NCBI GenBank assembly: GCA_037379345.1
Contig: CM074514.1
Location: forward strand, 49,042,001 to 49,106,000
Length of the DNA stretch: 64,000 bases
From: Perna viridis
Taxonomy: Eukaryota
Direction: 5' to 3'
In this document: piece after piece, positions 15,341-40,134 of the stretch
Layout of the letters: each line of letters opens with the position of its first letter
Position numbering within the stretch: the first letter of the stretch is position 1
Translations under genes and position numbers: made by a program
Notes under the pieces: model-generated
The model's input: the letters and a program-made list of their open reading frames with translations, nothing else
Told to the model about the DNA's origin: nothing
Databases searched by the model: none

Positions 15341-17736
15341 GTGAAATACACGCGGCGGCGTACTTTAGCTTCCTGTTGTGACATATTAAAAATGGTTGTT
15401 TGTAAGCATGCAGGTTAAATTAGGTAAATGTCATCTTTTAATTTTGTAGAGTAATGAAAAAGAATAGCACAGAATGTGTGGTTTAAAGAGCACAACTGGC
15501 TCAGATATTCCGTTTCAGGCGATTGTCTTCATTGTGCACCTTGTGTATTATTTGGTGGAAAAGATTCCAAGGAGAAAACTTTTATCAAACCTGTAAATTA
15601 CTGGAACGATATCTCATGATACTTCAAACGACATGAAAAACCCGTTTCAAGTCATCATAAGTTTGTTAAAACGGCTGATAAGTTTTGAGTAATACGCCAC
15701 GAGAAACCATTAATTAGCGATGCTCCCGCCTCAAGCAGGAAACTTCATATTGGAAAAAAAAGACATATCGTGAAAAAAAATTTCGAAAACCTAATTTTGT
15801 GTGGAAGACAAAACATAGCTGTCAGAGGTCACATTGAGGACCGCAGTAATTTTATGGTCGTTTTGAGATATGCTGCTGATGCTGACGATGTCCTGTCTAA
15901 CCACCTTACAAATCCATCAAATGTAAAAGGAAAATTCACGTCCCAATAAACAGTATGAAGTCCTGTCTATCGTTGGTAAACTAAAAGACAATATCGTCAG
16001 CGATTGTAATAAAAGTGATGACTTCTCTATTCTTGCTAACGACGCAACCGACGCTTCAACCAAAGAACAAGTTTTACTTTGTCTTTGTTCCAAAGATTCT
16101 ACATGCAATGGTTCTGAAATTCGTGAAGAATGTGTTGGTTTCCTGCTCATAGTATACGAGGTTAAGCTTTGGCTACTCTTCTACTCTATACAATTGATGA
16201 ATACGATATAGACGGGGACAAAATGCGTGCCCAGAGATATGACAGGGCAGAGAATATGGCCGAGATACATCAAGGAGTACAAGCGCAAATAAGGCAACGT
16301 TTCCCTGAAGTAGCCTATGTACATTGTAGAAGTCATTGCTTAAATCTAGCAATTGTTCACTCTTACAAATATCCGAGCGTTCGCACCATCATGGGAACTG
16401 TTCAAGACATAGCGTTTGCGTTTGATTACTCAACAAAGGGTACGGAGGCATTCTACAGTTAACTAGAATCAGATGAATAAACCAAGGATGAACACGTTGG
16501 ACAAATCGTCCTGATACTTTGCATACATTTAAGGTAGCATTTCCCGTTATAATCAGCGCCCTTGAACATCAGAAACAAAATGGTGATGACAAATCCAATC
16601 AGTACTTTGCAGCAATATTGCGGCTCCATTTTATAAGCGTAAGTTGTGATTTAATAGAAGCCGTCCGCGAATGCAAATTGGTTATAGATTAATTATCTGA
16701 TGAACGTTACGACGAAACTGTGAGATTCGATCTTTAATTGTGCAGTTACGATTTCTGACAAAATTGAGGTAGAGCCGCACATGCCAAGAAGAGTCTGAAG
16801 ACAAGCTAACAGAGCTAACCGTCAGGCCGAAACTCAAACTGAATACTGGAAAAAGGGCATTGTATTACCCATTTCTAGATTACTTTATTGTAGAATTGAG
16901 AGGGAGATTAATGAAAAATAGCGACAGGTTAAATGGACAAAAATTGATACCTTCCCGTTTAGAATCATAAACTGACGATAATCTGTTTGAAACATAAAAT
17001 CATGACCTTACTGAACACGAGAAGCGAGCTTTTCGAATCTGAGATCAAACGATGCAAAAGACGGTGGTCTGATCAGAATGCAGAGGCAGAGATCTGGTAC
17101 ACTCATGTCTACTCTGTCGGTTACAAACAAAGTTCTGTATCCCTCTGTTTTTTTCAATTTTATCGATTTCGATTACTATGCCCGTGACTACATCGACCAC
17201 CAAAAGGTCCTTTAGTGCTCTACGAAGGCTTGAAACATTTCATCGTTCGCCCATGGTTCAAGATAGATTGTCGTCTCTCGCACTGATACAAATCCATAGA
17301 GACATGAAAATAGACCGTGAGGAAGTTCTCCGTGAATTTGCATTAGCGAAAGACTTCGACTGTTAACTTCAATAGTTCTTTATGCGCAGCAAGACATTTG
17401 CCTTTACCTGAATATTTCGACAAATCAAAGCACAACAATTTGCATTTGATGAACAATTTCCCGATCTGTTAAGCTAGGGACCCTGGTTTAAGTCTTTAGT
17501 AACTATAATTAAAACATTTATTTCCGAACTTATTGTTATATCCACATTGATTAACCTTTGAATGAATTGAGATCTCGATGGGATTTTCATGAAACTGTGC
17601 TACTATTCATTTTGGTGACTTTTTTCTAACATGGAGTTCCCCAGTTATATTGTCACATCGCAAAAATGGAAATACTAGTATATTATAAAATAAGATGTGC
17701 AGTATGGGCAAAAAGTTGAACCTTAAGTTCATCTGA

Positions 17737-18624: not shown

Positions 18625-19318
18625 TCTGTTTCCGCTATATAGATGACGTATTATCTTTAAACAATCCTTATTTCGGGGATTTGATACATCGCATCTAGCC
18701 AAAAGAACTTGAGATAAAGGATACTACAGACACTGTGAAGTCAGCCTCATATCTTGACCTACACTTAGAAATCGATAGTAAAGGAAAACTATTGACCACA
18801 CTTTACGACAAACGTGATGACTTTTCATTCAGAATTGTCAATTTTCCTTTCATCTGTGGCAACATCCCTTCAGCACCTGCGTATGGCGTGTTCATATCAC
18901 AACTCATATGTCATGCCAGAGCTTGCCAAGCTACGCAGACTTTGTGTATCGCGCTAGAACTCTAACAAATAGGCTTCTGGAACAGGGATATGTTGCTACA
19001 AGATTGAAGTCATCACTACATAAGTTTTATGGTCGTCATCATGAACTCGTGGATCGTTGTGGTGTGTCCATCTGCACCTTGAGAACTGATTTATTCAACG
19101 GGTCATAGTTTTCCTTCCTCGTTTGTCTACCCCGGACTTGACTTTTTATGAGCAACTCGGCGGGTGTTTCTAGAAAAGCAGAGGACGCTTACCCTACCGA
19201 TGCACCCGGTCCATGCTCCCAGTTTTTAGTGGAGTCCGAGTTGCTCATTTCTTTTTTACTTTGTATGTATAATTTTAGTTACTTTATGTTCTTTGTTATG
19301 TATGTCTGTTTTCCATGA
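18625..19318 (+). mobile_element. Naiad-type PLE, young 5'-truncated copy
   Basis: FRYIDDVLSLNNP..KELEIKDTTDTVKSASYLDLHLEID..YDKRDDFSFRIVNFPFICGNIPSAPAYGVFISQL...KFYGRHHELVDR, plus a near-consensus tail. Confidence 0.93.
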
Positions 19319-35685: not shown

Positions 35686-35738
35686 ATCTTTTCTGTTCTT
35701 AGAAATCGATATAAGATAACGCTCTTACCAGGGGCATG

Positions 35739-36009
35739 ATTGTTCTTCAATCAGCCGGTTTATACAACAATATTGTTCTTCCATTAGCCGCTTTGCACAA
35801 TAATATCGTTCTTCCATCATCCGGTTTGTACAATAATATTGTTATTCCATCATCCGATTTGTACAATAATATTGTTTTTCCATCAGCCGGTTTGTGCAAT
35901 AATATTGTTCTTCCATCAACCGGTTTGTACAATAATATTGTTCTTCAATCAGCCGGTTTGTACAATAATATTGTTCTTCCATCAGCCCGTTTGTACAATA
36001 ATATTGTTC
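35739..36009. repeat. 33-bp minisatellite, ~8 units
   Basis: Unit TTGTACAATAATATTGTTCTTCCATCAGCCGGT. It explains the four overlapping repetitive ORFs (11-aa period). Confidence 0.95.
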
Positions 36010-38054
36010 AGTGTTTGTCTGATGATTCTTGTTTTGCCGGTGATATTTTTCTTGCATGTTTTTTTTTTATTATTAACATTGACTTAATTACAACATTTTA
36101 CAGATAAATACTGGTATATTGATTTTAACATTCTCCTTATTCAACGTATTTAAACTCTTATCCCCTTTTCAATGATCTACCAACATACCATAGAATTGAA
36201 TGTTTACCTTATACACATACTGTCATGTCATATTCTATGAGCTTGTTCAAATTGTAATATCATGGTGAATACATTTTGCCCATTTGAGATTAGATTACTT
36301 CCATGAAGAATTCATGGAAAACTAGGAGTGGATGCAATATTTCAATTATTAACCATAAAAACTAATATTACGTGTTCGTGACAAGTTGGAATTTTACACT
36401 TTGATAATACTTTAAAAAGTTATGGTCTTCAGTTTTATCACAAGTTGTTCAAAAAGTGATAAATTTCTTACGCATTCAAAGTCTATATAGTTTTTCATTC
36501 CTAAGCAACTGTCGATCTCAATTACAAAGATGTCGAAGAAATGATGTTTAATGGACCTGTATGATCAATTTAGCATGTTTATAACGTTGTTAGTTTTTTT
36601 TAAAAAGAAAACTCATTAGTACGAAAGAGATCGACGCACATTTATTTGCTCAAAAACAAAAAAACAAAAAACAAAAAACAAAAAAACAAAACAAAACAAA
36701 AAAATCGATACATTATCACAGTCAAACATAAACTGATACAGGCGAAACATCTAATATATTTTAATTCTCTAAGGTATATAACGGAAATTATAATTATAAT
36801 TAATGATAGTTCCAAAATTGGCACTAATAAACCGAACATTCTTTAAAAAAAAAGGTAATTCAGTGACATTAAAATACAAGTACATGAGCCAACGTAAAAG
36901 ATAATAATTATAGGGTATTCAATTTCCTAGTAATCAGACTAGTATAACCACGAACTTTTATATCATACAATTTTTTACCGAAGTTTGTCGAAAAAGCATT
37001 GAGTCCTGATTCCTTTTGTCAAACGTGGGATACAATATTTTTCTTTGCAATATACTGATAGAAATCATCGGTAGTGGGTCTGGCCTCTTCTTTCGATATT
37101 TTTTGTAACAATTTCCTTTGAATCTTGAACTTGGTAAGATGTTCTAATACTGTTGATAATAGTGTACTCAATGGAACACGTGTACGACATACCGCAATAA
37201 ATTCACATATAGTACTGAACATAATGATGACAAAGCAACACACAAAAATTAAGAACTTAAAAATGATCACCAAAAAAACCTGAAATGAATTCAGCTCCAC
37301 TACACAGGTAAAGAATTTCTACTCTGCTAGCAACACTTGCTGCATTGAAATTGAGTGGTGCACGTCCAATTTAGTGGATTATCAATCCGGTAAGACATGG
37401 CAACATTAAAAAAACGTCTTTTTAGTATTAAAATATACATGGATTTGTGATTGTCTCATTTTCGTGATTCTATGAAACTATCTAATTTAGAAAACAATTT
37501 GTTTTGTATAAGTTAATGAGTCCATTGTTCATAAACTCACTTTATTCCGTTAGAAGAATGAGTTTGAATTGATATAGCAGTTGTTAGAAGTAATAACGCG
37601 TCTATTTTAATTAATTATGTACTTTTGTCATAAGTGTACATTTTTAATTTGTGAGAAAAAAAGATAGACTCGTATTTTATACTTTATGAGTTACGTTCTG
37701 TGCAATTTATACATTTTGCACAACAACGCAATATATATTGAGGTTAATTGCGAAACAAAACGCTTTGACGCGTACTTACTGTTTATCATTTATGAATGTT
37801 TTACTAGAGTAAATAAGCTATATTTTAATGATGAAGAATATCTGTGAACAATAGATATGCAGTAAACTGCTAATAAAAAGCAAAAATGTCCGCATTATAC
37901 CAGCCAAGTCCCAATCCGTACTCCCTTTTATGATTCCCCTTTCCAGCAATAATATCCATTGTATTTCACTGTATGATATCCTATATTTTTAACGTTTAAC
38001 TCTTGTTTTCAACTAAATTAAATATAGTTTGGACTTCATCACATTAGAACTGGA

Positions 38055-39552
38055 TTTAATTGGAATTATAACGTTAGAGTGCTTATGGATGCTGTGGAGG
38101 ACTACTAAAAAACATGAATAAAGCGAGAACAAGACGACATTGATTCTCTGTCAGATTGGTTAAAGGCCGTGAGGTTTTTAATTTTGAAACGTATGAAAGT
38201 TTTGAGTAGGTCAATGAGTGTCAATGCTACATCAGTTTTCAAAGACCCCGATGTAACAAAAACATTGTCTACTATACATGACAAATATGTTGTCGTACCA
38301 GCAGACAAAGTCCAAAACAATATTGTTTTTGTCTGCAAAACGTTTTACATCCAATGTTTATTATCAGAGGTAGACGTAGAAAATAACAGCAGTGATAAGA
38401 CCTATACTGCTAACACACTTTCCAAAGAAGAGATTGTGGAAAACTATAAATCTCTGCTATCCTCTTTTGGTCTCTCTACCATGGATCATAATTGTTATTT
38501 ACCATCTATGTACTGGATTCCTAACCTCCACAAGAATCCATACAAACAACGTTATATAGCTGGATCTGCATAATGTACCACCAAAGCTTTCTCTAAACTT
38601 TCAATTTCTGTACTCACAACTGTCAAGGAGGGTCTGCAATCCTATCACAACACTTGTTACTCCCGTAGTGGTATTAATTCAATGTGGATCCTGGAAAATT
38701 CGAAAGATCTTTTGGAGACAATCAATTCGACTATTATTAGTATATAATAGCATTAAAACATGTGACCTTTCAACACTGTATACTTCTATTCCCCATACTT
38801 AGTTAAAATCCCGACTTATAAACATTATACATCATTGTTTTTCCAAAAAAGATGGAACGACTAGATATAAATATATAGTTCTTGGTAGAGATTCCTCATA
38901 CTTTGTAAAAAAGAATTCCAAATCATTTTCCAAATATACAGAAGAAGATGTTTACAAAATGCTGGAATTTTTACGTGATGACTTTTCATTCAGAATTGTA
39001 AACTTTCCTTTCATCCGTGGCAACATTCCTTCAGCACCTGCGTATGGAATGTTCATATCACAACTCATACGTTATGCCAGATCTTGCCGAATCTACGCAC
39101 TTTTTGCATCGCGCTAAAATTCTAACAATTAGGCTTCTGGTTCAGGGTTATGTTGCTACAAGATTGGAATCATCACTACAGAATTTTTATGGTCGTCATC
39201 ATGAACTCGTGGATCGCTACGGTGTATCCATATGCGCCATGAAAACTGATTTGTTCGACGTGTCATAGTTTTCCTTTCCTCTTTCGTCTACCCCGGACTT
39301 GACTTTTTTATGAACGACTCGGCGGATGCTTCTAGAAAAGCAGAGGACGCTTACCCTACCGGTGCACCTGGTACATTCCTGTTTCAGTTTTAAGTGGAGT
39401 CCAAGTTGCTCATTTGCTTTTGTTACTCTGTATGTATGATTTTAGTTACTTTATGTTTTTTGTTGTGTATGTCTGTTTTAATGTCTGGTCTTTGTTCCTG
39501 CATTACATTCGTTTGATTACCACTATAACCTTGGTATCCTTGATTACTCTTT
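38055..39552 (+). mobile_element. Naiad-type PLE with internal deletion of RT core
   Basis: NWNYN..REQDDIDSLSDWLK..HDKYVVVPADKVQNNIVFVCK..LPSMYWIPNLHKNPYKQRYIAGSA..DLSTLYTSIPH..KMLEF joined at ~38972 directly to RDDFSFRIVNFP. About 360 bp, including GIPMG and YIDD, is missing relative to the 9506-10846 copy. Confidence 0.92.
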
Positions 39553-40134
39553 TAAAACCCAAATCTCTCTCTTCACATTTCCCAATACCTATCACTATCA
39601 CCCTTAATGTTAATATACCGCAATATATTTTACCATAGAGTTGGCAGTTCATTCTATATACGTACTGTCATGTTTGCCTCAAACTAAGCCGTAATCAGCA
39701 TATTATATACAGTTTGGACTTATTATGCTTTTTGTATCACTTTTTTTGAAACAGGTATAGAACCTACTCGGGGGAATTTCAGTGTTAATAGTACAATAAG
39801 TAGAGAATAGTACTTATAAAGTTCATTTCATTATTCCCTTTAAAGAAGTAGCTCTTATTAAGCATAAAAGCTAACCACCAATTTGTGCAAGGGATAAAGT
39901 TGAATGTAATTCGGTTTGTTATTTATTTTAGGCAAAAATTTGTAGTGAGCATTTTGTCATCTACCTCCATGGTTTCTACCAAACGAGGAAGGATATAACT
40001 TCCACTAATCAAGTTGTTTTTACTTATTTGTTTTGTTTTTTTCTTCCAGATTCCTTCTTTTTTTTCATCTCGGTGAGAGCTTAGTATAAATCATGGGGTT
40101 TAATCACCAGATAAACTACATTCAATACTTATAC

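Follow-up and report, generated by a model that had tools for sequence, protein, structure and literature searches.

What is the function of a conserved RNA fold of about 100 nt that follows the reverse transcriptase (RT) gene of certain Naiad retroelements? The question is raised by a locus of Perna viridis within a 64,000-nt stretch of DNA (assembly GCA_037379345.1, contig CM074514.1, positions 49,042,001 to 49,106,000; in the following, “the window”). Naiads are PLEs for which, in the accessible parts of their description (PMC8557442), canonical hammerheads are reported to be lacking and some “HHR_core” strings are listed. An earlier note made from the sequence alone regarded the fold as a candidate non-canonical ribozyme, hammerhead-like on the antisense strand, or as an RT-recognition element, and proposed covariation analysis and an Rfam comparison as checks.

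Host element and fold anatomy

The focal Naiad copy is truncated at its 5' end, its translation is interrupted by stops, and the final ~68 nt of the element are missing. The host element shares 5' truncation with the Naiad clade, together with DKA instead of DKG (PADKAQNN in the long copies L053, L056 and L059), a CxC motif upstream of the RT (PDCSCK in L056, also found at 59581-60036 of the window), and an N-terminal GIY-YIG domain with an upstream Zn-finger, the GIY-YIG domain preceding the RT in the long copy L456 (Pfam E 0.0018, which is under the curated cut-off, with the motif visible). DKA, CxC and the N-terminal GIY-YIG are given as diagnostic Naiad traits in the available text of Craig et al. 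2021 (PMC8557442, section 6). The features to which the text refers are as follows.

18625..19317, plus strand: Naiad copy bearing the motif, 5'-truncated and frameshifted, with 95% identity to the 3' portion of L456
19106..19108, plus strand: RT stop codon (…TDLFNGS*)
19148..19160, plus strand: P0 5' strand, closing helix; sequence variable between families with pairing kept, 11/13 pairs changed on both sides
19161..19166, plus strand: P1 5' strand CGGGTG, invariant in sequence
19167..19176, plus strand: palindrome 1, 10 nt, self-complementary up to and including the centre and predicted to form an intermolecular helix; 5/5 pairs with two-sided change
19177..19189, plus strand: P2, R-GCAG-N4-YGC-U, a small hairpin containing an A-Y pair or a bulged A; invariant core
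19187..19189, plus strand: edge of the 5'-truncation pile-up (22/75 junctions); candidate scissile bond G19187^C19188 or RT stop
19190..19194, plus strand: conserved strand YACYC, which has no partner in the main model but could also pair with GGGUG
19195..19202, plus strand: palindrome 2, 6-8 nt, damaged here by G-to-A at 19200
19203..19208, plus strand: P1 3' strand CACCYG (here CACCCG), from the covariation alignment
19215..19235, plus strand: P4, hairpin with variable loop, 2/5 pairs with two-sided change
19236..19248, plus strand: P0 3' strand, pairing with 19148-19160
5949..6059, plus strand: second motif copy, same family, palindrome 2 intact

Several helices had been described in the earlier note, and the 13-bp closing stem (19148-19160/19236-19248), the 10-nt palindrome (19167-19176), the AGCA..GCT hairpin (AGCAG..CGCT, 19177-19189) and the CTCC/GGAG hairpin (GCTCC/GGAGT, 19215-19235) are indeed present. 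The GGGTG/CACC pairing it named also exists, but comprises 6 bp rather than 4, formed by CGGGTG (19161-19166) and CACCCG (19203-19208). Palindrome 2 was absent from that description; it is mutated in the focal copy, where the family sequence ACCGGT reads ACCGAT (19196-19201), with one pair lost and a duplex of -1.3 vs -10.3 kcal/mol. The folding z of the focal copy is -4.4 on the sense and -4.7 on the antisense strand, with 0/200 shuffles equally stable on either. An alternative pairing of GGGUG with YACYC is 97% paired and displays no two-sided change.

The motif begins 40 nt past the RT stop. It had been placed at the Naiad 3' end, yet it lies ~140 nt inside this end, which is sharply defined ~200 nt downstream of the G19187-equivalent. 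The same fold had been noted at 5950-6049, where it is present; however, this is a copy of the same family with 94.7% identity and, thus, not independent support. As it is one of 15 motif-model matches inside the window, recurrence of the motif there reflects a repeat family. The Naiad family occupies 45,672 of 800,000 sampled bases, and a degenerate pattern of the motif core has at least 12,222 exact matches in the Perna viridis genome, with none for the reversed control. Copies within the genome decay neutrally (41 copies), which is why no covariation signal is seen among them; two minor, older families with different palindromes are also present. No full-length copy with a clear upstream pseudo-LTR, from which it could be read whether pseudo-LTRs begin at the motif, is found among 20 long loci.

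Covariation, folding strand and distribution

Covariation was assessed in an alignment of 14 copies from seven families, chosen for intactness among the fetched loci, in which the individual cells are non-independent events. Of 518 cells, 94.8% are paired according to the model, and 19/37 pairs display two-sided change, whereas 0/500 shuffles match the model pairing and slid controls reach 41-46%. RNAalifold finds P0, P1, P2 and P4 unaided. The structure, hence, covaries across divergent families, and both the alignment and ten published consensuses (accessible part of PMC8557442 File S5) contain an unpaired invariant core enclosed by covarying helices. Read on the sense strand, the wobble cells comprise 65 G-U versus 6 A-C; since neutral transitions would yield both alike, selection acts on the sense RNA. 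Furthermore, the sense fold is more stable than the antisense fold in 8/8 representatives, clearly so in five. The motif is, thus, an RNA fold conserved on the sense strand of the 3' untranslated, pseudo-LTR-forming part of one Naiad branch.

In palindrome 1, all five pairs change on both sides, the central pair included. At the family level, its central tetramers are CCGG, CTAG, CATG, TATA, TCGA and TGCA, with no other tetramer among the families and consensuses available. A hairpin can neither form the central pair nor does it need a self-complementary centre, which argues for intermolecular pairing. Given that 16/256 tetramers are self-complementary, five independent changes of this kind would occur by chance about once in a million. 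Among unselected metagenome copies, a self-complementary centre is retained in 66/84, the other 18 being rare one-letter variants. G-U wobbles occur inside palindrome 1 in Naiad_Sglo and 2_Pfla (accessible consensuses) as well as in one fetched locus (L217); this tolerance points to RNA pairing and speaks against palindrome repair at the DNA level. For palindrome 2, the computed alignment contains one two-sided change only, and the remaining covariation comes from the available part of the supplement read by eye, where the centres CCGG, CTAG, CATG and TCGA are seen.

Palindrome 1 adjoins the 5' strand and palindrome 2 the 3' strand of P1, so that a symmetric dimer would place each P1 at a four-way junction with both duplexes. 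Thermodynamic cofolding, which makes palindrome 1 intermolecular in 5/8 representatives, cannot depict two crossing intermolecular helices and is excluded from the support. The covarying self-complementary centres suggest that the two palindromes likely pair between two motif copies, in agreement with the dimerisation through the palindrome that had been considered from the focal sequence.

At least 10/54 published Naiad consensuses (PMC8557442 File S5) have this architecture downstream of the RT stop, a lower bound given that a part of the file was scored by eye and that line breaks can hide matches. These include consensuses from bivalves (CGi, Sglo, Olur, Tgra and Pmar), hemichordates (1_Skow, 2_Skow, 1_Pfla and 2_Pfla) and a fish (Cmel, toadfish), between which the core letters are conserved. 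In the same material, also by eye, the motif is absent from nine other Naiad ends (Mcor, Mgal, Bpla, Mphi, Scon, Mmer, Adux, Ebur and Tama). The layout in the accessible consensuses is composed of a variable P0 strand, CGGGTG, palindrome 1 (10 nt), 0-1 nt, GCAG-N4-YGC and TYACYC in the 5' half, and of 0-2 nt, palindrome 2 (6-8 nt), CACCYG, 5-6 nt, a variable hairpin and the P0 partner in the 3' half; exceptions are ACAG in Tgra, TTACTA in 1_Pfla and a palindrome 2 with a wobble in Pmar. None of the ten motif-bearing families is annotated with a 3' RNA motif in the portion of the PMC8557442 metadata sheet available, and the open-access literature contains no description of the motif, while subscription papers and supplements may hold one; a retrozyme preprint of 2026 (10.64898/2026.07.22.740005) is concerned with hammerheads in its first part.

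Beyond published consensuses, a tight core pattern matches at least 120 metagenome loci, mostly from few related animal families, and many of the loci listed carry Naiad RT sequence upstream. Viral contigs yield neither core-pattern matches nor protein relatives. In GTDB genomes, three pattern matches are found, a number expected by chance, and none of them has the flanking architecture. No dataset recorded as RNA is among the listed holders of the pattern.

A putative dimer-dependent ribozyme and its alternatives

[quoted passage not shown] The comparison with Rfam (E up to 10; focal stretch and nine loci) yields nothing that matches the motif, including twister. The hammerhead box CUGANGA is contained in none of the 8 representatives on either strand, as had been seen in the focal copy; GAAA next to stem III with UH is not found either, since GAAA is an arm of the variable palindrome and is absent on the sense strand in 4/8. 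Non-circular hammerhead permutations exist and, according to the text available, still need CUGANGA (PMC10085705). The twister L4 loop (G-C pair, U.A pair, T1/T2 strands; pattern from accessible parts of PMC5408937 and clam Naiads) is present in 0/8, a partial look-alike at 19208-19217 not being conserved in other families. Twister pseudoknots and a conserved A at the cut with an A.A pair were likewise looked for and not found, and the invariant columns are without conserved AA or GA. For HDV-like, pistol, hatchet and hairpin ribozymes, there is no match to the Rfam models, which permuted or split forms would escape, and a comparison by eye with their consensus features gave no fit for class-specific catalytic residues in permuted order. 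By these comparisons, no catalytic core of any known class is recognisable, and the motif appears to be outside every RNA family tested, with pistol, hatchet, hairpin and HDV-like ribozymes set apart via Rfam and this comparison by eye.

The reading that we favour, with slightly more weight for it than against it, is that of a putative self-cleaving ribozyme that depends on dimerisation and represents an undescribed class. Two motif copies would pair over 10 bp in palindrome 1 and over 6-8 bp in palindrome 2; they might reside on one partial-tandem transcript, as its two pseudo-LTRs, or on two RNAs kept together by the protein of the element. The dimer would close two identical four-way junctions, each composed of P1 of one copy and the GCAG/YGC hairpin with the UYACYC strand of the other. 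A cut is predicted at or beside G19187^C19188, in the dimer only and probably slow or protein-helped. Cleavage would free the element from read-through transcripts, and occasional reverse transcription of the 3' product may give rise to the ~200-nt copies beginning at 19188/19189. The more specific proposal of a new ribozyme class in animal genomes, i.e., an obligate, symmetric dimer joined by two helices, whose active sites are formed in trans and cut UG^CUYAC, is one on which we are evenly divided.

Apart from the covariation, the palindromes and the conserved core, three lines of evidence favour a ribozyme. First, other PLEs bear palindrome-dimer hammerheads at the same position. These dimer-dependent type I hammerheads (Cervera and de la Pena 2014, PMC4209133, as far as accessible) occupy the same pseudo-LTR place in the same retroelement superfamily, and their palindrome likewise renders the motif dependent on another copy. 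They differ from the present motif, which is without CUGANGA and GAAA, has an invariant core of hairpin plus strand flanked by two separate palindromes and is predicted to form a four-way junction inside a three-way junction.

Second, sister Naiads contain a twister-like two-palindrome fold at the same place. After the RT stop of Naiad_Scon and Mmer, a 4-bp P2, T1, a covarying T2, P3, P4 and two palindromes can be discerned by eye in the accessible consensuses, and less cleanly so at the Mgal, Bpla and Mphi 3' ends, the call being judged against the type-P5 features in the available text of PMC5408937. This fold in clam and mussel Naiads shares with the motif the place after the RT stop, a 10-nt and a second palindrome, and a closing stem; in contrast, the motif lacks the L4 loop, the T1/T2 pseudoknots and the conserved AA or GA, and its palindromes are split by the core, while they are adjacent in the twister-like fold. 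The 10-nt palindrome of Mgal, which has the twister-like fold, is identical to that of Naiad_Tgra, a motif bearer. Pistol, hatchet and twister-sister were discovered through ribozyme classes substituting for each other at one position (PMC6765202, PMC10085705, in the parts seen).

Third, the pile-up of truncated copies has a sharp 5' edge. With G19187 numbered as 0, a pattern for copies without the upstream part of the motif gave 722 matches, 100 of which were listed and 98 used after removal of two near-duplicates; a further 23 with element-derived flanks were dropped, leaving 75 junctions. Among these, 12 fall at +1, ten at +2, two at 0 and one at -1. When uniform breaks are simulated, allowing 0-3 nt of microhomology, 7.5-12.9% fall at +1/+2, in comparison to which the pile-up at 19188/19189 (22/75) has p values of 2e-8 to 1.4e-4; the +1/+2 window was picked post hoc and retains p<0.005 after 31 windows. 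Such an edge is compatible with an RNA whose 5' end follows G19187 as well as with a pause of the RT.

If the more specific proposal is correct, Naiads would exchange ribozymes of at least three unrelated kinds, all palindrome-gated, at a single position, and the new class would number tens of thousands of copies across animal genomes, with a new catalytic fold. Activity requiring two-helix pairing of two copies would constitute a natural copy-number sensor, and the question of the Naiad paper, how Naiads thrive without hammerheads, would be answered. A construct of ~100 nt with a predicted cut site makes the proposal testable within days, and even without cutting, a defined dimerisation signal would be relevant to tandem and inverted PLE insertions.

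The latter is the basis of the main alternative, a non-catalytic dimer or RNP signal, which we rate as possible rather than probable. According to it, the palindromes join two template RNAs, in likeness to a retroviral dimer-initiation site, and the core is bound by the RT-EN protein; this would promote the template jumps that result in PLE tandems and inverted copies, and the truncation pile-up would be an RT pause at the bound core. The invariant sequence within helix P1 suits reading by a protein, and YACYC could replace CACCYG on the GGGUG strand, making switch-like behaviour possible. Truncations also cluster at helix bases, so that RT pausing can account for the pile-up: in a wide sample (60 of 1,482 matches), ~31 independent junctions are spread out, with three at +1..+3 and three at +61..+63 (P0 base), and in a random sample, at least six of the ends listed are at +21..+24 (P1 base) versus at least four independent ones at +2/+3. 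Of the element-to-element junctions, i.e., internal deletions, 4/23 are at +1 as well. Moreover, read-through copies dominate (12,222 intact pattern matches vs 722 filter-passing truncated ones), so that any cut must be rare in the templates used. Against a signal of this kind, RT initiation takes place ~140 nt downstream of the motif, at the fixed 3' end, and the sister Naiads, as far as their consensuses are accessible, combine a related RT with an unrelated, twister-like fold at this place, which fits interchangeable ribozymes better.

Reads contribute little to this choice. In one RNA-seq run, raw reads over the motif come from both strands and are mostly chimeric read-through, and molecule ends do not pile up. 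For a protein-assisted PLE hammerhead, the accessible text of PMC11167929 reports the same, wherefore the missing pile says little; counting against the ribozyme reading, that text also states that hammerhead cleavage is unnecessary for insertion of a Poseidon PLE in vitro. The loose ends seen at +0/+2 among the RNA-seq reads, like those at +1 in a contig set, reflect truncated genomic copies and not RNA ends.

A heavily altered known class is improbable, the most plausible form being a twister-sister-like “lantern” loop, in which GC-AG faces GCUYAC and the cut is Y^A at 19190/19191. Reconstructed from the parts of PMC11620745 available, the long strand agrees in 5/6 letters and the short strand in 4/5 with one deletion, the shared element being a GCUYA string facing a GC..AG string. 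However, of the 5+6-nt internal loop with its C^A cut, the 5-nt short strand is missing from the core in 8/8 representatives, being one letter shorter in the motif; the supporting P2 stem is absent; position 12 is a C, a change reported there as abolishing activity; and Rfam gives no match. The truncation edge, furthermore, is not at the C^A bond: the predicted cut is at +4 (1/75 junctions), whereas copies begin upstream of it, at +1/+2.

Very little weight is given to a DNA-level element, i.e., an endonuclease site or internal promoter whose palindromes would be bound by factors. The palindrome of the focal family resembles a heat-shock element. Pseudo-LTRs contain promoters (PMC8557442, in the part seen), but the palindrome sequence varies freely between families with complementarity retained, and long-range covarying helices and the G-U bias point to RNA. 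Finally, the antisense hammerhead-like ribozyme of the earlier note is already largely refuted and scarcely credible: the focal antisense strand folds as stably as the sense strand, but CUGANGA is on neither strand (8/8), the GUAA proposed as a GAAA stand-in is not conserved, reading GUGA by eye in the accessible Naiad_CGi, Sglo, 1_Skow and Cmel consensuses, and both the wobble counts and the stability of the representatives favour the sense strand.

Other repeats and observations in the window

Decayed motif copies of other, older Naiad families are found at 58403-58510 (plus strand) and 37245-37353 (minus strand), and longer Naiad fragments at 9506-10845, 8919-9508, 38058-39553 and 58972-60118. 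Near 9500, a Naiad pair is inverted head-to-head, an arrangement typical of PLE insertions. A tandem duplication of ~5.66 kb (41805-47405/47464-53061, 95-100% identity) contains two truncated Naiad tails in duplicate (45762-45958/51418-51614 and 46842-47040/52498-52696), each of which begins at +3. Truncated Naiad tails are also captured inside other repeats and co-amplified with them, with a shared junction at several loci (L517, L531, L532, L545-L549), and the last ~38 nt of the element (equivalent to L003:1734-1771) are repeated in many reads and contigs, which is the PLE “tail” signature.

In the motif itself, the conserved core at 19186-19195 reads GTRAGC on the antisense strand, like a 5' splice-site consensus, and its sense strand resembles the U1 snRNA 5' end; the antisense GTRAG splice-donor reading was rejected, given that the junctions miss that boundary. 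Elsewhere in the window, 15900-17350 contains what we take, judging from translated motifs, to be a degenerate hAT-like/zinc-finger transposase remnant, and 35706-36068 is a tandem array, made of 33-nt units, that contains a 130-codon open frame.
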